64,000 bases of DNA from a virus, in IMG/VR virus record IMGVR_UViG_3300023184_000042, positions 1-64,000 of that record. The stretch is one strand, 5' to 3'. This document shows, piece after piece, positions 2,712 through 46,057 of this stretch. Both the position numbers and the translations under genes were made by a program. The notes beneath the pieces were generated by a model that did not search any database, was not told where the DNA came from, and saw only the letters and a program-made list of their open reading frames with translations. Position 1 is the stretch's first letter, and each line of letters starts with the position of its first letter.

Positions 2712-3016
2712 TGAAGATAAAACAAAGAAAGATTTACAATGAATATAAAGATGCATCTAAAAAAGAAATCTGGGAGGGAGTTAGGGATAATTTTACTTTT
2801 GGATTTCTAGGTGCTACTTTAGTTGTATTCATTGCTACTCGCACAGATCTCGCAGTGCTAGCAGGATACATTTTATATTACATGTTCATGGGTAGAATTG
2901 TTAATAGACCTAAATATGTAACAGACCTCGGAAGAAAGATAGTATTTCCTATTCCGTCTGCTCTCGGAGCATTTGTAGGATATAAATTATCTTATATCTT
3001 GCTTCAATTAATTTAA
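2711..3016 (+). CDS. small membrane protein
   Basis: about three hydrophobic segments. Confidence 0.6.
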   Translation: MKIKQRKIYNEYKDASKKEIWEGVRDNFTFGFLGATLVVFIATRTDLAVLAGYILYYMFMGRIVNRPKYVTDLGRKIVFPIPSALGAFVGYKLSYILLQLI

Positions 3017-3035
3017 TGTGATTTATTTAAAATAC

Positions 3036-3044
3036 GATATTTAT
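3036..3044 (+). promoter_or_regulatory. putative late promoter RATAWTTAT (representative; also 5145, 5975, 11740, 26393, 38941, 47045, 48736, 50507, 54807, 56425, 61783)
   Basis: recurring motif about 20-35 nt upstream of most starts (further at 11740), enriched before leader-family and structural genes. Confidence 0.6.
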
Positions 3045-3071
3045 TTAAAAATAATAATCTAATCATATCGT

Positions 3072-4109
3072 ATGAAATCAACTCAACTTAATATTTTACG
3101 AAACTTAATTCGTGAAGAGGTTAAGAAGTCTTTAGCAACCAAAGCTCCTATCAATGAAGCGTTTGCTTCTCCTATCTTAAGAAGACTTTTAGCTCAAAAA
3201 ACTTATAGAACAACTATCGCGCCAGCATTCCAAAAAATGGCTCAAATTGCTTTAGATAAAGTAACTGACGATTGTATTACTAAAATGGACCCGACATCTG
3301 CTTACAAAGAGCTTAAAAAAGCAGGAGGTAAAGTAGTTGTATTTTACGTTTCAGAAAAAGGTACTACTAACAGCTATGCAAAAGATGCATATTATCAAAA
3401 AGTTGCTCCAGGAACTGTGTTAGGGCTTGCATCCGGAGATAATAAATTCTTTGATGTAAATTACATTAGATATGGAGCTGACAATGGTAAACAAACTATG
3501 AGTGCTGGTAAAACAGGAGACTCTGTTGGTGTTCAAAAATCAGGTTCAGGATATGGCTCAACAGGATTATATAATGTTAAACGCGTAGCTGAAATAGCTG
3601 ACGTAGCTTATGTAATTGATTTAGAAAAATTAAAAGATAAAGGTTTAGGGACTTCAGCATTAGCTTCAAAAAGATTTAATCAAAAATTCGGAGCTATTGC
3701 ATTTAAATCAGATGCTCAATTCAAAAAAGAAAATTTAGCTAGATATAAAGAAGCTTTGCAAGGTAGAGCTGCTAAAGGAGATATTGATACTATGGTGTTA
3801 GAAGCTATTAATCAAGTAACTAAACAAATATCTGCAGCTGTAGCTGGTAAATCATTATCTCAATATGGAGATGTTCTTATTGGTAAAAGTCCAAAAGGTA
3901 GAGATGTAACTGCATCAGACGCTTCTAATGCTTTAAATAGATTGCTTCAAGACTTTGCTAGATACTCTTCTGCTAAAATAGAGTTAGAAAAATCTCAAGC
4001 TGGTGATGCTAATTATCGTTCTAGCTATTCAGAAACTAGAGTAAAAGAGTTTGCTTTGGATATTAAAAATCACTGTATCAAAATCAATAAATTAGATTAC
4101 GGCTGGTAA
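3072..4109 (+). CDS. putative virion-internal protein, class B leader (LRNLIREEVKKSL...INE)
   Basis: shared N-terminal leader motif. Confidence 0.6.
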   Translation: MKSTQLNILRNLIREEVKKSLATKAPINEAFASPILRRLLAQKTYRTTIAPAFQKMAQIALDKVTDDCITKMDPTSAYKELKKAGGKVVVFYVSEKGTTNSYAKDAYYQKVAPGTVLGLASGDNKFFDVNYIRYGADNGKQTMSAGKTGDSVGVQKSGSGYGSTGLYNVKRVAEIADVAYVIDLEKLKDKGLGTSALASKRFNQKFGAIAFKSDAQFKKENLARYKEALQGRAAKGDIDTMVLEAINQVTKQISAAVAGKSLSQYGDVLIGKSPKGRDVTASDASNALNRLLQDFARYSSAKIELEKSQAGDANYRSSYSETRVKEFALDIKNHCIKINKLDYGW

Positions 4110-34858: not shown

Positions 34859-35500
34859 ATGAAAATAGTAGCAAAAAATGTTTGGTTTACGTCCGATTCT
34901 CATTTTGGACATACCAATATTTGTAGAGGAGTTTCTAAATGGAACACAGGAGATGAAGAAGAGTTTAATGCTGCTACTCGTAATTTTCCAGACTTAGAAA
35001 CAATGAATGAACACATTGTTGAGAACATTAATAATTGTGTCGGAGAAAATGATTGGTTAATACATCTTGGAGATTTTTCCTTTGGAGGAATTGAAAATAT
35101 TGAAGTTTTACGTTCTCAAATCAAATGTAAAAACATTGTATTGATTATAGGAAATCATGATCATCACATTGAAAACAACAAAGAAAATGTCAGAAAACAT
35201 TTTCGTCACGTTGCCCATTATGAGGAACTAGATGTGACTGTAGAGAATAGATTAGGTGCTAATAAACACAAATTTGTTCTTTGCCATTACCCAATTGTAT
35301 CTTGGAACAATATGCCAAGAGGAGCATTTATGTTGCATGGTCATCAGCATTTGAAAGGCGATTCTAGATTTGGAGAAGGAAGAAGAATGGATGTTGGAAT
35401 GTGTGGATCTCCTGAATTTAGACCCTACCATATTGATGAAGTTTTAGAGTTGTTAAGTGGTAGAGATTCTAGAGAAAGACATTCTAGAGACGAAAAATAG
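34859..35500 (+). CDS. metallophosphoesterase
   Basis: SDSHFGH, HLGD, GNHD, CHYP, HGHQH. Confidence 0.9.
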   Translation: MKIVAKNVWFTSDSHFGHTNICRGVSKWNTGDEEEFNAATRNFPDLETMNEHIVENINNCVGENDWLIHLGDFSFGGIENIEVLRSQIKCKNIVLIIGNHDHHIENNKENVRKHFRHVAHYEELDVTVENRLGANKHKFVLCHYPIVSWNNMPRGAFMLHGHQHLKGDSRFGEGRRMDVGMCGSPEFRPYHIDEVLELLSGRDSRERHSRDEK

Positions 35501-35611
35501 TCAGGTGGCGGAATGGTAGACGCACCGAATAGTTAAACGGAGTGGAATAAGTCGCAATATAGTTGAGATACACATAAGACCCATACGCAGGTTCGATTCC
35601 TGTCCTGACTA
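35499..35611 (+). ncRNA. tRNA-like RNA lacking an anticodon arm
   Basis: AGTCAGG/CCTGACT acceptor, Leu-like D arm, GCAGGTTCGATTCCTGT T arm. Confidence 0.6.
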
Positions 35612-39200: not shown

Positions 39201-39277
39201 GCGGTGCTGGTGTTTAACGGTTAGCATATGAGTCTTCCAAACTCGAGGTAAGGGTTCGAATCCCTTGCGCCGCTCCA
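39201..39277 (+). tRNA. tRNA-Gly(TCC)
   Basis: cloverleaf, loop CTTCCAA, CCA encoded. Confidence 0.9.
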
Positions 39278-39282
39278 ATATT

Positions 39283-39363
39283 GGGATGCTTCAGTCACTG
39301 GTGTGATAAGCGGTCTGTAAAATCGTTCTGTAAGAGGGTATGGTTCGATTCCATAGTGTCCCA
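39283..39363 (+). tRNA. tRNA-Tyr(GTA)
   Basis: loop CTGTAAA, long variable region, odd D arm. Confidence 0.8.
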
Positions 39364-39375
39364 CAAATATTAATT

Positions 39376-39447
39376 GGGTTGGTAGCTCAGAGGCAGAGCG
39401 GCTGTTTGTTAGGCAGCGGGTCGAGATTTCGAAATTCTCCCAGCCCT
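39376..39447 (+). tRNA. tRNA-Asn(GTT), atypical T arm
   Basis: loop TTGTTAG; T arm GAGATTTCGAAATTCTC. Confidence 0.75.
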
Positions 39448-39453
39448 CAAAAT

Positions 39454-39524
39454 ACGCCAGTAGTGCAATGGTAGCATCTCGGTCTCCAAAACCGATGGTG
39501 GGGGTTCGAATCCCTCCTGGCGTG
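39454..39524 (+). tRNA. tRNA-Trp(CCA)
   Basis: loop CTCCAAA. Confidence 0.9.
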
Positions 39525-39555
39525 CGAATTAAGTGTGTAACGTAAATTAGAGATT

Positions 39556-40062
39556 ATGAATAAATATCAAAAAACGCTTGTCGTAGATTCAAGCTTTATG
39601 GCGAGATCTATTATTAGTGCAGAGAGAGCATTTGTGATTTCTTATAAAGGTAATGCTGAAGTTGTTTCTGAACATCCTGAAACTTTTGGATTGGTTAATC
39701 CAGAGTTAAAGATTAATAAACCTTCTATTATACGTGTTTATAAGTATGTTAAACAGCATATTCATAAAGTGCCTTTAACAAGAGAAAATGTTTATAGAAG
39801 AGACAATTTCGAATGTGTATATTGTGGATGTTCAAATATCAAGTTGCTAACTTTAGATCATGTTATACCTCAATCAAAAGGAGGTCAAAACTCTTGGGAC
39901 AATTTAGTTACTGCATGTAAATTTTGTAACTCTGAAAAGGCTGATTTAACTTTGGAAGAGTTTGGTAAGGAAATTCCCGAACCAAAAAGGCCTCATTATT
40001 TAATGTTAATGAAGCAAGTAAATTATATACCTAAAGAATGGGAGTCCTTTCTATTCTTTTAG
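39556..40062 (+). CDS. HNH endonuclease within the tRNA array
   Basis: RRDNFECVYCG..LTLDHVIPQSKGG..WDNLVTACKFCN. Confidence 0.9.
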   Translation: MNKYQKTLVVDSSFMARSIISAERAFVISYKGNAEVVSEHPETFGLVNPELKINKPSIIRVYKYVKQHIHKVPLTRENVYRRDNFECVYCGCSNIKLLTLDHVIPQSKGGQNSWDNLVTACKFCNSEKADLTLEEFGKEIPEPKRPHYLMLMKQVNYIPKEWESFLFF

Positions 40063-40068
40063 AATTAA

Positions 40069-40135
40069 TTGGAATTAGCTTATAGTAAAGCAGCAGGGGC
40101 TAACCTGTAGAACGGATACGAGAACCGATTCCAAT
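40069..40135 (+). pseudogene. degenerate tRNA-like element with a CTA-containing 6-nt loop
   Basis: TTGGAAT/ATTCCAA, D stem GCTT/AAGC, GCAGG-GGCTAA-CCTGT, no TTC. Confidence 0.45.
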
Positions 40136-40141
40136 TAAAAT

Positions 40142-40213
40142 GCCTTGGTAGCTCAATGGTAGAGCACTTGTTTTGTAAACAAGAAGTTGCAGGTTCGAGT
40201 CCTGTCCTCGGCT
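40142..40213 (+). tRNA. tRNA-Thr(TGT)
   Basis: loop TTTGTAA. Confidence 0.85.
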
Positions 40214-40219
40214 CAAAAT

Positions 40220-40293
40220 GATGATATAGCTCAATTGGTTGGAGCACCTCGCTGATACCGAGGAGGATATAGGTTCGAGTCCTATTATCATCA
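40220..40293 (+). tRNA. tRNA-Ile(GAT)
   Basis: loop CTGATAC. Confidence 0.9.
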
Positions 40294-40304
40294 CAAATAT
40301 ACTT

Positions 40305-40380
40305 CTGGTAGTATAGGAGTCCGGTTTATCTAGCCTACCTTGGATGTAGGAGCACGCAGGTTCGAATCCTGCCTATCAGA
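40305..40380 (+). tRNA. tRNA-Pro(TGG)
   Basis: loop CTTGGAT. Confidence 0.85.
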
Positions 40381-40448
40381 CAAATTTTCTTTTAAGAAGG
40401 TTAGGATTAATCAAAAGAATTCTTTATCTTTATGTAAGAAAATAATTA

Positions 40449-40519
40449 GCCCTCTAGGCTTTAAAGTGAAGCACCTAGCTTTTAACTAGGGAAAGAAGGA
40501 GCATTACCTTCAGGGGGTA
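40449..40519 (+). tRNA. tRNA-Lys(TTT), non-canonical T loop
   Basis: CCTAG-CTTTTAA-CTAGG; T arm GAAGG-AGCATTA-CCTTC. Confidence 0.7.
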
Positions 40520-40578
40520 CACAGATGAGATTGTTATTAATTCATAGAGCTACATATTGCGAGCATAGAATTAAATTT

Positions 40579-40649
40579 GCCTCGTTGGCGTAATGGAAGC
40601 GTATTTCTTTTACATGGAAATGGCAGTGGTTCGATTCCACTACGAGGTA
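40579..40649 (+). tRNA. tRNA-Val(TAC)
   Basis: loop TTTACAT. Confidence 0.85.
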
Positions 40650-40655
40650 CAAAAT

Positions 40656-40729
40656 GTCCTTTTAGCTCAGCTGGTCAGAGCAGCTCGCTCATAACGAGAA
40701 GGTCACAGGTTCAAATCCTGTATAGGACA
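40656..40729 (+). tRNA. tRNA(CAT), elongator Met or Ile2
   Basis: loop CTCATAA. Confidence 0.85.
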
Positions 40730-40737
40730 CAAAAATT

Positions 40738-40809
40738 GGTCTATTGGTCCAGGGGTATGGATGTCTGCCTGTCACGTAGAAGACTCGGGTTCGAATCCCG
40801 AATAGACCG
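40738..40809 (+). tRNA. tRNA-Asp(GTC)
   Basis: loop CTGTCAC, G73. Confidence 0.9.
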
Positions 40810-40848
40810 CAAATGGTTTTGAACTTTTTCTTTATGTGTTTGTTTTTG

Positions 40849-40959
40849 AGGCATTTGACTTTCCATGCCAGTTAGCTTATATGCTGTGTCATGGATACCG
40901 AAGGAAGCTGAGTAAAAATGTAAATGCCTTTATATGAGAAGCCTGGTTTCGAGCCAGGC
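40849..40959 (+). ncRNA. candidate pseudoknotted spacer RNA
   Basis: AGGCATTT/AAATGCCT, TCCATG/CATGGA, crossing TTAGCTT/AAGCTGA, 3' hairpin GCCTGGT/GCCAGGC. Confidence 0.5.
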
Positions 40960-40962
40960 AAT

Positions 40963-41035
40963 GGGTCTTTGGTATAGCTGGTGCGTACGTTAGTCTGAAG
41001 AACTAAAGGAGCAGGTTCGATTCCTGCAGGACCCA
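40963..41035 (+). tRNA. tRNA-Phe(GAA)
   Basis: loop CTGAAGA. Confidence 0.9.
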
Positions 41036-41045
41036 CAATTTAATT

Positions 41046-41113
41046 GCCGAGTGGTCAGGGACCGGAGATGGCTCATATCTATTTCTAGAATGGCTCGATA
41101 CCATTACTCGGTA
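41046..41113 (+). tRNA. compact non-canonical tRNA(CAT)
   Basis: GCCGAGT/ACTCGGT, D arm GGTC-AGG-GACC, 7-bp anticodon stem, T loop CTCGATA. Confidence 0.6.
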
Positions 41114-41120
41114 CAAATTT

Positions 41121-41192
41121 TGGGTTATAGTGTAACGGTTAGCACAAATCACTTTGGCTGATTTAGTCTAGGTTCGAATCCTAGTAACCCAA
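41121..41192 (+). tRNA. tRNA-Gln(TTG)
   Basis: T1-A72, loop CTTTGGC. Confidence 0.9.
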
Positions 41193-41202
41193 CAAAATAC
41201 AT

Positions 41203-41276
41203 GGTGATTGTAGCTGAATTGGTAAAGCACCTGATTGTGGTTCAGGCGATTGTGGGTTCGAGTCCCACCCTTCACA
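41203..41276 (+). tRNA. tRNA-His(GTG)
   Basis: G-1, loop TTGTGGT. Confidence 0.9.
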
Positions 41277-41370
41277 CGACGACGCCCAGAGGACGTAAGT
41301 CTTGGTTAGAGATTTATTCTTACAGACTCGGTACCTAAAGCTGAGCGGCTATTTGAAAGAATAGCTTTAT

Positions 41371-41458
41371 GCGCCTGTGGTGGAATGGTAGACACGTTGG
41401 ACTTAAAATCCAATCCTCAGGATTGGGGGTGCCGGTTCGAGTCCGGCCTGGCGTACCA
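41371..41458 (+). tRNA. tRNA-Leu(TAA)
   Basis: loop CTTAAAA, long variable arm, CCA. Confidence 0.9.
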
Positions 41459-41460
41459 AT

Positions 41461-41548
41461 GGAAAGTAATGCAACTAGGAGTTGTCACTGTTTGCTAAAC
41501 AAGTGGTCCGGGAAACTGGATAGGGTTCGATACCTTTGCTTTCCTCCA
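41461..41548 (+). tRNA. tRNA-Ser(GCT), bulged anticodon stem
   Basis: loop TTGCTAA, long variable arm, CCA. Confidence 0.75.
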
Positions 41549-41556
41549 TAATAAAT

Positions 41557-41629
41557 GCCTCTATAGCATAAATGGAAATGCAACATCCTTCTAAGATGTT
41601 AAATGGAGATTCGAATTCTTCTAGGGGTA
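41557..41629 (+). tRNA. tRNA-Arg(TCT)
   Basis: loop CTTCTAA. Confidence 0.85.
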
Positions 41630-41748
41630 CAATAAGAAACAGAGTAAAGCCTGGACAGCGAAAGCAGGGTAGTTTTTAACTTGGACAGTTTCTTTTAGCA
41701 GTTTAAGAGTCAGAGCTGACTTCTGCTTATCAAAAATGCTCTGCCACT

Positions 41749-41822
41749 GCCCGAGTAGCCGAATTGGTATAGGCGCTAGACTTAGGATCTAGATTTTGCG
41801 AGTTCGAGTCTCGCCTTGGGTA
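41749..41822 (+). tRNA. tRNA-Leu(TAG), short variable loop
   Basis: loop CTTAGGA; variable region only ATTTT. Confidence 0.85.
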
Positions 41823-41828
41823 CAAAAT

Positions 41829-41900
41829 GCTCTTATAGTTTAATTGGAAAAACGTTTGGCTACGGACCAGATGATATAGGTTCGAGTCCTATTAGGAGTT
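41829..41900 (+). tRNA. tRNA-Arg(ACG)
   Basis: loop CTACGGA. Confidence 0.85.
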
Positions 41901-41907
41901 CAATAAT

Positions 41908-41978
41908 GGCGTGATGACCGAATGGTTAGGTGCAGGTCTGCAAAACCTGTTATGCTGGTTCGATTCCAGCTCGCGCCT
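41908..41978 (+). tRNA. tRNA-Cys(GCA)
   Basis: loop CTGCAAA, U73. Confidence 0.9.
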
Positions 41979-42044
41979 CAAAATAATTTTAAATAATATT
42001 AGGTTCCTCCAAAAGGGTATCTTATATTTATGAAGAATTAAAAG

Positions 42045-42134
42045 GGAAGGTTGGCAGAGTTGGTCTATTGCACCGGTCTTGAAAACCGGAGAGCGTGTAA
42101 AAGCGCTCCGTGGGTTCGAATCCCACATCTTCCT
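42045..42134 (+). tRNA. tRNA-Ser(TGA)
   Basis: loop CTTGAAA, long variable arm. Confidence 0.9.
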
Positions 42135-42140
42135 CAAATT

Positions 42141-42212
42141 GGCCCTATCGACTATCGGTTAGGTCGTCAGGTTTTCATCCTGGAAAGTCGGGTTCGATTC
42201 CCGGTGGGGCTA
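42141..42212 (+). tRNA. tRNA-Glu(TTC)
   Basis: loop TTTTCAT. Confidence 0.9.
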
Positions 42213-42220
42213 CAAAAAAA

Positions 42221-42292
42221 GGGGTTATAGTGAAATTGGCATCACGATAGATTTGCATTCTGTTATTCCGAGTTCGAGTCTCGGTAGCTCCA
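42221..42292 (+). tRNA. tRNA-Ala(TGC)
   Basis: loop TTTGCAT, G3:U70. Confidence 0.9.
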
Positions 42293-42326
42293 CTAATTTA
42301 TTAACAAATACTAAATATTATCTATT

Positions 42327-43238
42327 ATGAAAAATTCATTATCTACTAAAGGGTTATCTTTGTCTCAAGCACAATCAATCTCTAATTTGTGTAACCAGAG
42401 ATCTATCGAATTGTCTAATACATTGTCAGATGTTAATAACGTTGAAAAGACGTTGACAATTGGTTCTGACACTTATATTGAAACTCCAGCAAAACCTTTA
42501 CCAGGTAACGTAGCTGAGTTAATTCAAGAAAAAGCGAGACTTGCTGCTACTCAAGCTTTTTTAATGGAAAATATCAAAGCGAAAGATTCTTTGATTAAGT
42601 CTATTCAAAAAGAGCAATATTATGCTTCAGCTCCGAGACCAACGTCTCCAGAGTATGTTGAAATTGATTTAAAAGAACTTGTTTCTGAAGAGTGGGCATG
42701 GAATGAATTATCAGCTGCTGAGTATAATGAATTTTTAGAAGCGGAGGCTTATGCAGCGCACATCGGTCAATTTATCCATAAAGGAGGAACTTTAGATCGT
42801 TTAAGAACAGAATTGCCAAAAATTAAAACTTTGGAATTCATGGAAATTGAAACAGGAAAGAAAACTCCTATGAAAGTAGCAGTTCATCACACTTCCGCTC
42901 AATTGCTTTCAATACATGAAGAGTTAGCAAATACTCATAGAGAGTATGAGCAAAAAGTAAATTACTTCAAGTCAAAAGTAAAAAATGCTGTGACTAAAGA
43001 AAATGCTCGAATTGCAAATGAAAATGCCGATGTAGTAGCAAAGGCAAATGAAACTAACCAAACTTTGCGAGACGAATTCAGAAAGTTAAATGAAGAATGG
43101 AACGCTTTCGTAAGAAAAGAAACTCAAGAATTTGAGGCTAAACGCCAAGGAAGAATTGAAGCTGCAGTGTCTCTTAAAATAGACGTTGCTCCTAGATTCC
43201 AACCAGTAGTGGATGAGTTTCTTAAAACAATAAAATAG
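42327..43238 (+). CDS. alpha-helical/coiled-coil protein of unknown function inside the tRNA array
   Basis: 303-aa ORF, E/K/A-rich heptads. Confidence 0.75.
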   Translation: MKNSLSTKGLSLSQAQSISNLCNQRSIELSNTLSDVNNVEKTLTIGSDTYIETPAKPLPGNVAELIQEKARLAATQAFLMENIKAKDSLIKSIQKEQYYASAPRPTSPEYVEIDLKELVSEEWAWNELSAAEYNEFLEAEAYAAHIGQFIHKGGTLDRLRTELPKIKTLEFMEIETGKKTPMKVAVHHTSAQLLSIHEELANTHREYEQKVNYFKSKVKNAVTKENARIANENADVVAKANETNQTLRDEFRKLNEEWNAFVRKETQEFEAKRQGRIEAAVSLKIDVAPRFQPVVDEFLKTIK

Positions 43239-43244
43239 AAAAGT

Positions 43245-43583
43245 AGTTATGGTACTGAAAGGATAAGCAAACGCCGATACCTGGAAGTTTAATATCGGGA
43301 GGTGTAAAGCAATTTATACTTACAAAGATATAAGATACAAATCAACTTTTAATTGATTATAGGCCCCGTGCCTATACAGCCAACTCGCTTCTGTTACAAA
43401 TTAAACCAAACTGAGATAGAACTCAATAGCTCGACATGTTACTCCTAATGGGAGATTAAAAGTGGCCAGCGAACCGAGACTTAGTTTTTGTTTTTGTCTT
43501 TGCTGTAACGGAAGGTCTTTGACATTGATTTTGATTTTGATTTAGTCTATATACTTTATTCTCCCGATAACATAATTATTACC
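43245..43583 (+). ncRNA. candidate ~340-nt structured ncRNA with hexamer repeats
   Basis: TATCGGGAG (43293) / CTCCCGATA (43561), CTTCTGTTACA (43388) / TGTAACGGAAG (43504), several hairpins. Confidence 0.65.
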
Positions 43584-43590
43584 AATATAC

Positions 43591-43663
43591 CGCGGGGTAG
43601 TGTAAGGGTAGCACGAAGGGCTCATAACCCTAAAGTTCGGTTCGAATCCGGCGACCGCTACCA
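43591..43663 (+). tRNA. initiator tRNA-fMet(CAT)
   Basis: C1 mismatch, GGG/CCC anticodon stem, CCA. Confidence 0.85.
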
Positions 43664-43670
43664 ATAAGTA

Positions 43671-43705
43671 AAATGCATTGAAGAAATTCAGTGCATTTCT
43701 ACTGA
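43671..43705 (+). terminator. terminator ending the tRNA array
   Basis: AAATGCATTGAA/TTCAGTGCATTT followed by CTACTGA. Confidence 0.65.
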
Positions 43706-43782
43706 AAAATACTTTGGAAATGATTAGGACGTTAATTAAATTATACTTATCTTTATGTATAGAAATTAGAAATAGACAAATT

Positions 43783-44744
43783 ATGAGAACATTAAGATTA
43801 TCAATCGCTATCCAAAGTCATTTAAGTGACGCCTTATTTGAAATGAGTTTCAATCCTGAAATGGCAGAAAATCGAATTCATTTTGTGAAAACGTTAATTA
43901 ACCTGTATCCTAATACCGATGTAGAAGTTGAGGAAGCAGAATTGACTAGAATTTATAAAGAACGAATTTTAGGAATTGTTGAAAAATAAATTGAAAAAGA
44001 TTAGGACATAAGAAATATTATCCTTATCTTTATATATAGAAATTAGAAATAATAAAAATTTAAAAATTAAAAATTATGTATTTACAAGTAACGAATTCGA
44101 AATTAGCAAAATTTAACCAAATTGGTACCACTTCAAGTAAATTGATGTCAGACTTAGCAAATATGGGTTGGAAATTATCTGACTGTAAAGTGTCTGAAAT
44201 TAGAAAAGAATTAGTCGAAGCCAATTATAAATGTGTAGATGGTAAGACTTCAAAAAGATTTTCAGTAAAGTAATTTAACCCAAATAAATTTAAAAAGTAT
44301 GAAAGCTCAATCAATCCAACCAGGTCAGACAAATACTATTAGTTTTGGTAATTTCGCAATAGTTTTAGAAAAAGAACAGTTACATTATTATTCAGATGGT
44401 GAAATTACCAGAGTAATTGATGTAAGCTATGAGTTCAATTATAAAGATTTATTTGATTTAGGAACAAGAATTGCTACCAAGAACACCTTAGGTGCTGTGA
44501 AGTTTGTAAATAAAAGAGATGTAGTAAAAAATTCTAAATAATGAAGAAATCAAGTTATAGAGTAGTCCCAACTCAGCACGAAAAATTTGGTGCGTGTTGG
44601 GCTATTAAACAAGGTAAAGTAGTTGTAGGTACTTTTATTAGTAAAATAAAAGCCGATCAAAAAAAGATGGCACTAGATGCTTTAGAGCAAGAAGATTTCC
44701 TTTTAGGTAAGACAATAAATCAAGAATTAAAAATAGAATTATAA
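43783..44744 (+). CDS. four small early hypothetical proteins (43783-43989 start revised, 44076-44273, 44299-44541, 44541-44744)
   Basis: follow promoters 43724 and 44001. Confidence 0.55.
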
Positions 44745-46057
44745 TGGCGTATGCAGCAATAGTCACTAGACTTAAAAATGTAAGACCGCATTCCAATGCT
44801 GATAAGGTGCAATTAGCAACTTGTCAAGGTAATCAGGTCGTAGTAGGATTAGACAACAATGAAGATGCTTTAGGAGTTTATTTTCCTACCGATGGGCAAT
44901 TATCTCATGAATTTTGTTTTGCTAACAACTTGTATCGTAAAGCAGAAATGAATAAATTTCCAGACGAGAAGCCAGGTATGTTTGACGAGAACCGAAGAGT
45001 TCGAACACAAAAATTCAGAGGTGAAGTGTCAGACGGTTTTTGGGTTCCACTTCATCAATTTGGGTTTATTCAAGTTACTGGATTAGACGTTGAAGGTTTT
45101 GAATTTACTGAATGGAAAGGAATTCCTATCTGTGATAAGTATATCAACCCAAACACTTTGAAATTAGCTAGAGAGAACCAAGGTAAGAAATTAAGAACTG
45201 CAAAGTCCTCAATTATGTTCAAAGAACATTTTGATACTGCCCACTTTGGTAAGCACGTTCATGAATTTAAACCAGGTCATAGAATTGTAGTTACTGAAAA
45301 AGTACATGGTACTTCTGGTAGAGTAGCAAGAGTTCAAGTAGATAAAAAATTATCTAGACGAGATAAGATTGCTAAATTTTTCGGAGCTAATGTAGAAGAA
45401 AAAGAGTGGACTTACCTTAATGGAACTCGAAGAGTTGTGTTAGAAGAAACTTCTGGAACTCAATATCATGACCCAACAATTAGACAAAAAGCGTTTTCTT
45501 TGTTCAAAGACAATTTAAGAAAAGGCGAGTCTGTGTTTTTTGAGATTGTAGGTTATGAATCTACCGGAGCCGCAATTATGCCTTCAGTTGATACAACTAA
45601 ATTAGGAGATAAAGAATTTTCTAAATTGTTTGGAAAGACAATGTCTTACTCTTATGGGTGTGAACCAACAGAACATAAAGTGTATGTGTATAGAATTACC
45701 AACACCAATGAAGATGGTCAGTCTGTTGATTTAACTTGGGATGATGTTAAGACTCGTTGTGAAGAGTTAGGAGTAAATCATGTTCCTGAATTGTTTATAG
45801 CTTCTATAGAAGTAATTGCCGCATATTCTAAATCTAAAGATGACAGAGATATTTATAACTTATTAACTGAAATTGTAGATACCGCTGCTAAAGGAGCTTC
45901 TGTAATTGATCCTTTTCATATTAGAGAAGGTGTATGTGTTAGAATTGATAATTTTGGTATGACTCCAAAAGTGTACAAACACAAATCTTTTGAGTTTAAA
46001 GTGTTAGAAGGTATTGTAAAAGATACAGGAGTTGTTGATATGGAAGAATCAAATTAA
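44744..46057 (+). CDS. RNA ligase (DRB0094/Rnl-like, N-terminal OB-like domain)
   Basis: PHSNADKV, KFRGEVSDG, VTEKVHGT, FFEIVG, REGVCVR, KHKS. Confidence 0.85.
   Translation: MAYAAIVTRLKNVRPHSNADKVQLATCQGNQVVVGLDNNEDALGVYFPTDGQLSHEFCFANNLYRKAEMNKFPDEKPGMFDENRRVRTQKFRGEVSDGFWVPLHQFGFIQVTGLDVEGFEFTEWKGIPICDKYINPNTLKLARENQGKKLRTAKSSIMFKEHFDTAHFGKHVHEFKPGHRIVVTEKVHGTSGRVARVQVDKKLSRRDKIAKFFGANVEEKEWTYLNGTRRVVLEETSGTQYHDPTIRQKAFSLFKDNLRKGESVFFEIVGYESTGAAIMPSVDTTKLGDKEFSKLFGKTMSYSYGCEPTEHKVYVYRITNTNEDGQSVDLTWDDVKTRCEELGVNHVPELFIASIEVIAAYSKSKDDRDIYNLLTEIVDTAAKGASVIDPFHIREGVCVRIDNFGMTPKVYKHKSFEFKVLEGIVKDTGVVDMEESN

Follow-up and report, generated by a model that had tools for sequence, protein, structure and literature searches.

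A covarying phage RNA with phased hexamer tracts and its conserved partner gene beside a tRNA array

Locus overview

The DNA analysed here, called the window below, is a stretch of 64,000 nucleotides (nt), positions 1 to 64,000 of the 132,303-bp IMG/VR virus record IMGVR_UViG_3300023184_000042. In the window, an array of 21 transfer RNA (tRNA) genes called by ARAGORN (39201-42293) is followed on the plus strand by an open reading frame (ORF) for a 303-residue protein of an orphan family, then by an ORF-poor stretch and a tRNA-Met-like element. A first-pass annotation made from the sequence alone had read the ORF-poor stretch as a structured noncoding RNA (ncRNA) forming a pair with the ORF product. 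The comparative results described below leave us almost certain that 43246-43576 is a genuine new class of structured RNA with an obligate partner gene. The two features at the centre of this work are as follows.

42327-43238, plus strand: partner ORF, 303 aa, orphan family (from the ORF list)
43246-43576, plus strand: structured ncRNA of 331 nt, bounded by the terminal helix P1 (match to covariance model R1 at 43241-43579, 277.8 bits; covariation)

Conservation of the RNA structure

The consensus structure was derived from an alignment of 26 sequences (A3) by taking the RNAalifold consensus and omitting from it four 5′-junction pairs and three small hairpins within the U-rich tracts. RNAalifold on the first MAFFT alignment had given 12 pairs only, because the variable parts were misaligned, and this result was superseded by the covariance model (CM) alignment. 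The CM built from A3, designated R1, has 337 positions and 63 pairs, and gave exactly one full-length match per source in 100 of 100 related sources, with scores from 93 to 353 bits. In the alignment of these 100 relatives (A4), 92.6% of the 5986 pair cells were standard pairs compared to 72.1% in shuffles, and changes on both sides were found in 59 of the 63 pairs, these counts being somewhat inflated as A4 was fitted to the model structure. The covariation score of A4 was 0.581, compared to 0.216 for shuffled alignments, and none of 500 shuffles reached it; when the partners were slid by 1-3 columns the score was at most 0.134.

Two results are less affected by the fitting. Mutual information with average product correction (MI-APC), calculated over all column pairs and free of any structure, ranked the modelled pairs top and added the terminal helix and one further P2 pair. 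P1, which is absent from R1, was paired in 81.6% of cases compared to 58.6% in shuffles, with a covariation score of 0.547 against 0.184. Thus the nested long-range helices that the first-pass annotation had described, P1 included, are borne out by covariation across the 100 relatives. All the helices, hairpins and hexamer tracts (43481-43504 and 43518-43547) that it had named lie where it had put them, except the P1 strand GTTATG, which starts at 43246 and not at 43245. The elements of the RNA are listed below.

43246-43251, plus strand: P1 5′ strand GUUAUG, pairing with 43571-43576 (CAUAAU); covariation and mutual information (MI) pairs
43254-43288, plus strand: P2 hairpin with a conserved apical loop UAAGCA(C/A)A(A/C)GCCGAU (UAAGCACAAGCCGAU) and a 2-bp GC/GC mini-stem (43267-68 / 43273-74); model helices 1-3, pair 43254-43288 from MI
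43293-43301, plus strand: P3 5′ strand TATCGGGAG, pairing with 43561-43569 (CTCCCGATA, 43561); model helix 4, double changes in 9/9 pairs, 93.7% paired
43303-43320, plus strand: local hairpin GUGUAAA-GCAA-UUUAUAC, lineage-specific; sequence and single-sequence fold
43359-43377, plus strand: hairpin UAUAGGC-CCCGU-GCCUAUA; model helix 6, double changes in 6/6 pairs
43388-43398, plus strand: P7 5′ strand CTTCTGTTACA, pairing with 43504-43514 (TGTAACGGAAG, 43504); model helix 7, 98.0% paired, double changes in 9/9 pairs
43408-43415, plus strand: P8 5′ strand AAACTGAG (AAACUGAG), pairing with 43480-43487 (CTTAGTTT, 43480); model helices 8-9, followed by a near-invariant AUAGAACUC
43429-43470, plus strand: inner helices GCUCG/CCAGC and CAU/GUG around a hairpin of variable length (CUCC/GGAG, 43442-43454); model helices 11-12
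43479-43502, plus strand: hexamer tract 1, four NNNU(U/A)G units; periodic conservation
43516-43545, plus strand: hexamer tract 2, five NNNU(U/A)G units, then a near-invariant CUAUAU (43547-43552); periodic conservation

In the overall fold, P1 opens into a junction of P2 and a long arm that starts with P3. Deeper in this arm come the variable hairpin and then an inner domain (P7 to P11), in which P7, P8, a 3-bp helix and P10 lead to an apical hairpin whose length varies. The stretch 43303-43320 extends P3 in most relatives (model helix 5) instead of forming the local hairpin, and the inner hairpin of relatives takes insertions of up to about 45 nt. P8 shows little covariation because its sequence is mostly invariant. 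The single-sequence fold of the RNA has a z-score of -2.44, and none of 100 shuffles folds as well. Across relatives the RNA module measures about 305-390 nt. In the window, the RNA starts 8 nt after the stop codon of the ORF, and the promoter scan revealed no promoter or terminator pattern between the two; in other lineages P1 overlaps the stop codon.

The search with Rfam 15 returned only tRNA models, both for 42200-43800 at E ≤ 10 and for the whole window at gathering scores, and the RNAs of seven relatives gave no match at E ≤ 0.1.

Linkage of the RNA to the partner gene

The association between RNA and gene was assessed from both sides. When viral contigs were scanned with the ORF, 84 relatives emerged and 80 of them (42-95% identity) were kept; blastn and nhmmer located the RNA core downstream of the ORF in 74 of these 80 loci, so that a conserved covarying element is indeed present where the first-pass annotation had suggested looking for one. 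Five of the six loci without a core lie at contig ends: L017 and L066, which retain partial CM matches; L053 and L054, which end inside the ORF match; and L042, which ends at the ORF match. The sixth, L080, has its full flank and lacks the RNA.

The RNA-first search used a 15-mer from the near-invariant ACUGAGAUAGAACUC and yielded at least 119 loci; chance matches to a 15-mer are to be expected in a collection of this size. Among the matches listed, the RNA core was present in 86 of 119 loci and absent from 33, and an ORF homologue lay 5′ of the core in 84 of the 86, the other two (L139 and L169) starting too near the RNA to hold the ORF. Many RNA-first loci are on the same contigs as ORF-first loci, and the two sets together contain 107 unique RNAs. 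Clustering of all ORFs within about 5 kb placed the partner family at 103 of the 107 unique loci, compared to 23 of 107 for the next commonest cluster.

The linkage extends to distant loci, where the ORFs are only 21-30% identical to a distant member of the family. An R1 match at E < 0.01 was detected downstream of the ORF in 34 of 39 such loci; the RNA there is shorter, about 260-280 nt, and begins immediately after the ORF wherever the tblastn match reaches the ORF end. Since both the pairing of gene with RNA and the two-tract layout are kept at this level of ORF identity, the pair must be old. Within the reach of comparative genomics, these counts support the earlier proposal of a protein-ncRNA pair. 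The RNA is also better conserved than the ORF, with a core 70-84% identical where the protein is 47-66% identical.

Phased hexamer tracts

The four hexamers of tract 1 and the five of tract 2 flank the P7 3′ strand on either side. In most units the conservation of the UUG triplet (sometimes UAG) is 0.84-1.00, compared to 0.38-0.86 for the three preceding bases. The autocorrelation of information content peaks at lag 6, reaching 0.41 in tract 1 and 0.36 in tract 2, with troughs at lag 3 (-0.51 in tract 1), and the same analysis revealed no 6-nt periodic conservation in the rest of the RNA. On the plus strand of the window, period-6 runs of at least four T[TA]G occur three times; two of them are these tracts, and the run of five is unique.

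The variable positions of the hexamers (positions 1-3) were compared with other unpaired positions. The results showed change rates of 0.051 and 0.136, respectively, at 88-95% overall identity, and of 0.172 and 0.226 at 80-88%. The variable hexamer positions were the slower-changing ones in three of four identity bands and are therefore not hypervariable spacers. The two-tract layout is kept in RNAs beside ORFs only 21-30% identical. Given the periodic conservation and the linkage to the gene, the chance that the hexamers serve as binding steps of the partner protein may be put at a shade under even. Binding of an oligomer to the repeats, as the first-pass annotation proposed, would be the simplest way to account for them.

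The partner protein

The family of the 303-residue ORF product is large, comprising 2415 proteins at E ≤ 1e-3 in a word-indexed search and 839 clusters at 50% identity in an exhaustive search. The homologues are all near 300 aa in length, and there were no fused forms among the 150 listed. The AF2 model of the ORF product has a mean predicted local distance difference test (pLDDT) score of 86.3. Helices make up most of it, arranged as two helix / beta-hairpin / long-helix modules plus C-terminal helices. Residues kept family-wide include N20, K86, Y136, A143, G147, H151, H204, R205, N212 and K215; to judge from this conservation, they could serve RNA binding or catalysis.

Searches for known relatives gave little. 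No family scored above the cut-offs of Pfam, PHROGs, PADLOC or NCBIfam for the ORF product, and in 36 distant family members Pfam returned only single coiled-coil-type matches, each in 1 of the 36. Nothing significant was found in the PDB by sequence; Foldseek 'pdb' with the model gave 0 matches at E ≤ 0.001; BFVD gave an uncharacterised homologue only; and the best Z of a wide VIA-align search was 7.7, inside the noise stated for helical models. The ESM Atlas contains the sequence of the ORF product and gave no usable match. No match to the ORF was obtained by tblastn in 50,697 GenBank phage records, blastn of 42200-43700 matched only the tRNA-Met-like part, and a scan with a single distant protein (P0250) found no relative. 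A scan of genome contigs yielded six ORF relatives, five of which also have the RNA; no host can be named because all six sit on contigs of metagenome-assembled genomes. A three-copy homo-oligomer prediction for the ORF product scored 0.14 and 0.08 against a mark of 0.42, which counts neither for nor against binding.

Genomic setting

The neighbouring features of the window are as follows.

42221-42293, plus strand: tRNA-Ala, the last clear tRNA of the array (ARAGORN, Rfam), 33 nt before the ORF start
43592-43659, plus strand: weak tRNA-Met(CAU)-like element, 15 nt after P1 (Rfam tRNA 36.1 bits, gathering score 29; not called by ARAGORN)
44744-46057: RNA ligase whose N terminus carries a PHA02142 OB-fold domain; the gene lies 1.2 kb downstream of the RNA (Pfam RNA_ligase 6.1e-10; PHROG 968 1.3e-62)

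The unit had been placed between two tRNAs. On the upstream side this is correct, tRNA-Ala being clear; on the downstream side there is only the weak tRNA-Met-like element, which has mismatches in its acceptor stem and whose first bases are kept in the close relatives L001 and L002. Same-strand tRNAs occur in the 3-kb upstream flank of 44 of the 65 unique close or mid-distance loci, compared to a downstream tRNA in the flank of only five, many loci having a terminator-like hairpin there instead; the pair usually occupies the distal end of a tRNA array. In the distant locus L231, a tRNA (3207-3275, 39.6 bits) starts at the last base of a short form of the RNA (2939-3207), so that the order ORF-RNA-tRNA recurs far from the lineage of the window. 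The idea that tRNA processing releases the RNA therefore fits the window and some distant loci such as L231, and is not general.

Several further observations were made in the course of the analysis. An HNH endonuclease gene lies within the tRNA array at 39556-40062 (Pfam HNH_5 1.6e-14; PHROG 16726 4.8e-31). Far from the array, at 35499-35611, Rfam matched a tRNA of 113 nt (38.4 bits; not called by ARAGORN), possibly one interrupted by a long insert. A long motif, ATTAGGAC..TTATCTTTAT.TATAGAAATTAGAAATA, is shared by two intergenic stretches ahead of small ORFs, at 43718-43775 and 44003-44060, and looks like a phage promoter word. In another distant locus, a phage-encoded transfer-messenger RNA (tmRNA; Rfam RF00023, 61.7 bits, E 7.5e-22) was found upstream of the partner-ORF homologue (L218:1485-1869).

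Contigs from RNA libraries

Part of the window is contained in 20 public runs, six of which are RNA libraries; the run labels are lake, freshwater, estuary and marine. Four RNA runs (X15-X18) were examined as contigs, which show neither level nor strand, and RNA libraries may contain DNA. One contig in run X15 delimits a further feature.

43239-43580, plus strand: self-closing unit of 342 nt, candidate mature RNA (circle or head-to-tail form)

This RNA contig is 372 nt long with a depth of 10.4, and its ends overlap by 30 nt across a joint from 43580 to 43239 with one ambiguous letter. The ORF contigs of X15, at depths of 3.2-4.3, all stop short of the RNA. The two ends that meet at the joint are 7 nt upstream and 4 nt downstream of P1, just outside the helix, in agreement with the boundaries derived from covariation. 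The joint could reflect a circular RNA, head-to-tail products of reverse transcription of an abundant linear RNA that has these ends, or a tandem DNA copy in the sample concerned. No joint like it was found in X16, X17 or X18. As to tandem DNA copies, R1 detected none in 100 of 100 loci. A scan for the permuted junction GTCTATAT..TAAGCACAAGC gave four viral matches, none matched by the CM; the same scan with YGAT added gave 0 metagenome matches; and a broader AAGGTY... junction pattern gave one metagenome match, unmatched by the CM, and 0 viral matches. The motifs from which the junction patterns were built co-occur in only 19 of 107 unique RNAs without the leading AA and in 47 of 107 with it. 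These scans are of limited reach, and their blank outcome means no more than that tandem copies in DNA did not turn up.

The closed contig hints at a discrete RNA, perhaps circular, and is a lead from one contig. We regard a circular mature form as unlikely. Should it exist, the RNA would be excised from the tRNA-operon transcript just outside P1 and sealed by phage RNA-repair enzymes as a 342-nt covalent circle (43239-43580), an 11-nt loop capping P1, and its protein-loaded UUG tracks would yield a nuclease-resistant circular ribonucleoprotein (RNP); this fuller scenario is held with the same doubt. The RNA ligase gene downstream is relevant to this form. The partner protein, with H151, H204, R205, K215, N212, N20 and K86, might itself be the excising enzyme. 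Among bacterial viruses, such a form would be out of the ordinary.

Proposed explanation

On balance, the explanation we favour is that the locus encodes a new class of phage ncRNA paired with a dedicated, equally new protein, and we think it probable rather than assured. The RNA would be made on the tRNA-operon transcript, from which trimming would yield a discrete RNA of about 340 nt. Copies of the ORF product, or its domains, would occupy nine or so UUG units of this RNA scaffold at a 6-nt spacing, giving an RNP of fixed stoichiometry. The neighbourhood of tRNA and RNA-repair genes suggests a role of such an RNP in RNA or translation biology.

Several observations weigh against this explanation, besides the inflation of the A4 pair counts described above. 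Locus L080, with an ORF of 42% identity, has the ORF and no RNA within 3 kb; it is the only full-flank locus of this kind, and at L080:3907-4400 a terminator-like hairpin and another gene follow the ORF homologue. Adjacency is not absolute either, as at least 12 loci carry a small ORF between the partner ORF and the RNA. These inserted ORFs measure 200-860 nt, in gaps of 217-860 nt, and differ between loci (L011, L012, L018-L020, L023, L027, L030-L032, L038 and L040); genes seem to be inserted preferentially at the junction that follows the partner-ORF stop. The A-rich 5′ half of the RNA could pair loosely with the U-rich tracts, so that the tracts need not be free single strands; RNAduplex energies neither show nor exclude such pairing, the A-rich 5′ middle and tract 2 giving, relative to shuffled partners, a median z of -0.2, with 5% of 100 sequences below -2 and no support beyond composition. 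The contigs of X16, X17 and X18 run linearly across the border between ORF and RNA. Finally, no RNA-binding fold was recognised in the partner protein by Foldseek 'pdb', BFVD or VIA-align.

If the pair forms an RNP, it represents a new and widespread phage RNA biology, at a site where phages keep tRNAs and RNA-repair genes. To our knowledge, no earlier phage 'tRNA-island' RNA of the ROOL and GOLLD context has a partner protein, and such a partner would make the function of these RNAs directly testable.

Alternative explanations

The strongest alternative, to which we give a lesser though appreciable weight, is that the RNA acts alone, either as a self-assembling ornate RNA like ROOL and GOLLD or as a sponge for a host factor recognising U-rich or UUG repeats, the protein being a maturation, stability or co-regulated factor. 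The upstream same-strand tRNAs at 44 of 65 unique loci, the higher conservation of the RNA core relative to the ORF and the evidence of L080 that the ORF can exist without the RNA are all consistent with this possibility. However, a stand-alone RNA leaves its near-obligate tie to one gene family, down to 21-30% protein identity, to be accounted for, and 331 nt is far below the size of cage-forming RNAs. Such a tie would also differ from ROOL and GOLLD, as ROOL is described, in the portion of the preprint available, without an identified protein partner (bioRxiv 10.1101/2024.12.08.627333).

It is rather improbable that the element is a cis-acting 3′ untranslated region (3′ UTR) of the ORF mRNA, working as a stabiliser or translational regulator and not as a separate RNA. 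The 8-nt distance from the stop codon, the overlap of P1 with the stop in other lineages, the lack of a promoter pattern between ORF and RNA in the promoter scan, and the linear contigs of X16, X17 and X18 would be expected of a 3′ UTR. However, the RNA is kept at the 12 named loci where an ORF of 200-860 nt is inserted. The part just after the stop codon is also conserved and remains about 105-120 nt before the core even with an inserted ORF; staying with the core in this way, it marks the RNA as a discrete module. Moreover, eleven or so helices and phased repeats go far beyond the needs of known 3′ stabilisers, and the closed contig of X15 lacks the ORF and has about three times the depth of the ORF contigs.

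A programmable guide RNA of the VIPR type, in which the protein grips the fixed triplets and a target is recognised through non-contiguous pairing with the variable bases, is very improbable. The formal likeness is genuine: a phage-encoded RNA with a fixed triplet plus variable bases and a dedicated adjacent protein. Against it, the rate of change at the variable hexamer positions does not exceed that at other unpaired positions, the period is 6 and not 5, and the motif is UUG and not GGY or its NNNGG, YNNNG or NNNNG variants. Each locus has a single RNA, in which the number of units is fixed. The protein model consists mostly of helices, and neither a RAMP nor a Cas7 chain appears in the Foldseek 'pdb' or VIA-align lists. 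Least credible of all is that the element works as DNA (as iterons, an origin or a promoter) or encodes a small protein, as might be read from the TTGACA and TATAT words in tract 2 and from a frame that turns this tract into X-Leu repeats: TTGACA and TATAT stand 23 nt apart and no site was listed at this place by the promoter scan; the median length from stop to stop, whichever of the six frames is taken, is 51.5 aa, and no start is conserved; and a coding role is excluded because of 1-nt indels inside the region, the failure of any frame to persist (in L005 a UAA ends the X-Leu frame) and the compensatory changes in 59 of 63 pairs, strand-specific G-U pairs among them.

Comparison with known systems

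The first-pass annotation had not recognised the element as GOLLD, ROOL, tmRNA, RNase P, signal recognition particle (SRP) RNA or 6S RNA, and neither these families nor Y RNA gave an Rfam 15 covariance-model match to it. A group I intron with an internal ORF was rejected, as there is no match to Rfam Intron_gpI, the flanks vary between loci (tRNAs, terminators, other ORFs) and the unit ends in U at 43580 and not in a terminal G. In type III toxin-antitoxin (ToxIN-like) systems, RNA repeats of about 36 nt form an array that precedes the gene of an endoribonuclease toxin; here the repeats are 6 nt long, lie within one folded RNA downstream of the gene, and PADLOC gave no match at E < 0.01.

The phased U(U/A)G triplets resemble, by analogy, the binding site of TRAP. 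In the Bacillus trp leader, this site consists of about 11 (G/U)AG triplets, each bound by one subunit of a ring oligomer, with variable spacers of 2-3 nt and a period of 5-6. TRAP itself is a small beta-sandwich 11-mer whose site, in the 5′ leader, controls attenuation, whereas the tracts described here are part of a large closed RNA that follows the gene. The stable RNAs of the T4 tRNA cluster (species 1 and 2, also rnaC and rnaD) are non-tRNA species of about 140 nt with no assigned function that are processed from the phage tRNA operon. We know of no partner gene or repeats for them. The present RNA shares their setting in a phage tRNA operon, and differs in that the T4 RNAs are much smaller.

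ROOL and GOLLD are also phage or prophage ncRNAs of unassigned function, often beside tRNA arrays and conserved by structure (bioRxiv 10.1101/2024.12.08.627333). GOLLD is often more than 800 nt long compared to 331 nt here, and phased hexamer tracts are described for neither in the part of that preprint available (bioRxiv 10.1101/2024.12.08.627333). The present RNA differs further in its obligate protein-gene partner and in matching no Rfam model. No published description of the RNA or of the protein was found, although the cluster tables of the Evo-PIN study, which reports 20,149 candidate RNA-protein clusters, may include the family; the RNA periods given in the available part of that study are 5, 18, 60-79, 10, 8 and 7 nt, none being 6 (bioRxiv 10.64898/2026.10.21.760802).

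In class 1 CRISPR systems, Cas7 protomers line up along the CRISPR RNA (crRNA) with a 6-nt period, which offers an analogy to the hexamer spacing; these systems are also mentioned in the VIPR study (bioRxiv 10.64898/2026.04.26.720920). However, the present locus has neither a repeat-spacer array nor cas genes, the fold searches listed no RAMP chain, and the sequence of its periodic part is itself conserved.

The VIPR system (Vipr and vrRNA) is the closest published concept. It combines a phage RAMP protein, with an RNA recognition motif (RRM) core, a G-loop and a thumb, with RNAs of about 100 nt whose 9-16 five-base repeats (GGY fixed, NN hypervariable) guide DNA binding, and its protomers line up along vrRNA repeats of the form YNNGG (bioRxiv 10.64898/2026.04.26.720920). 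Both systems are phage-encoded and place a dedicated gene beside an RNA tract with a fixed triplet and variable bases. They differ in period (6, NNN-UUG, here; 5, YNNGG, in VIPR), in the variable bases, which are not hypervariable here, and in architecture, with about nine units in two tracts inside a 331-nt multi-helix RNA instead of the 9-16 repeats and tail that make up a vrRNA of about 100 nt. To judge from its AF2 model, which is mostly helical with two beta-hairpins, the partner protein probably lacks the RAMP/RRM fold of VIPR; and there is no vap-like accessory gene here, no second neighbour cluster exceeding 23 of 107 loci. If the favoured explanation is true, about nine protein-sized steps of 6 nt would constitute a third design beside the Cas7-crRNA and Vipr-vrRNA filaments, one in which the sequence is fixed and not programmable.

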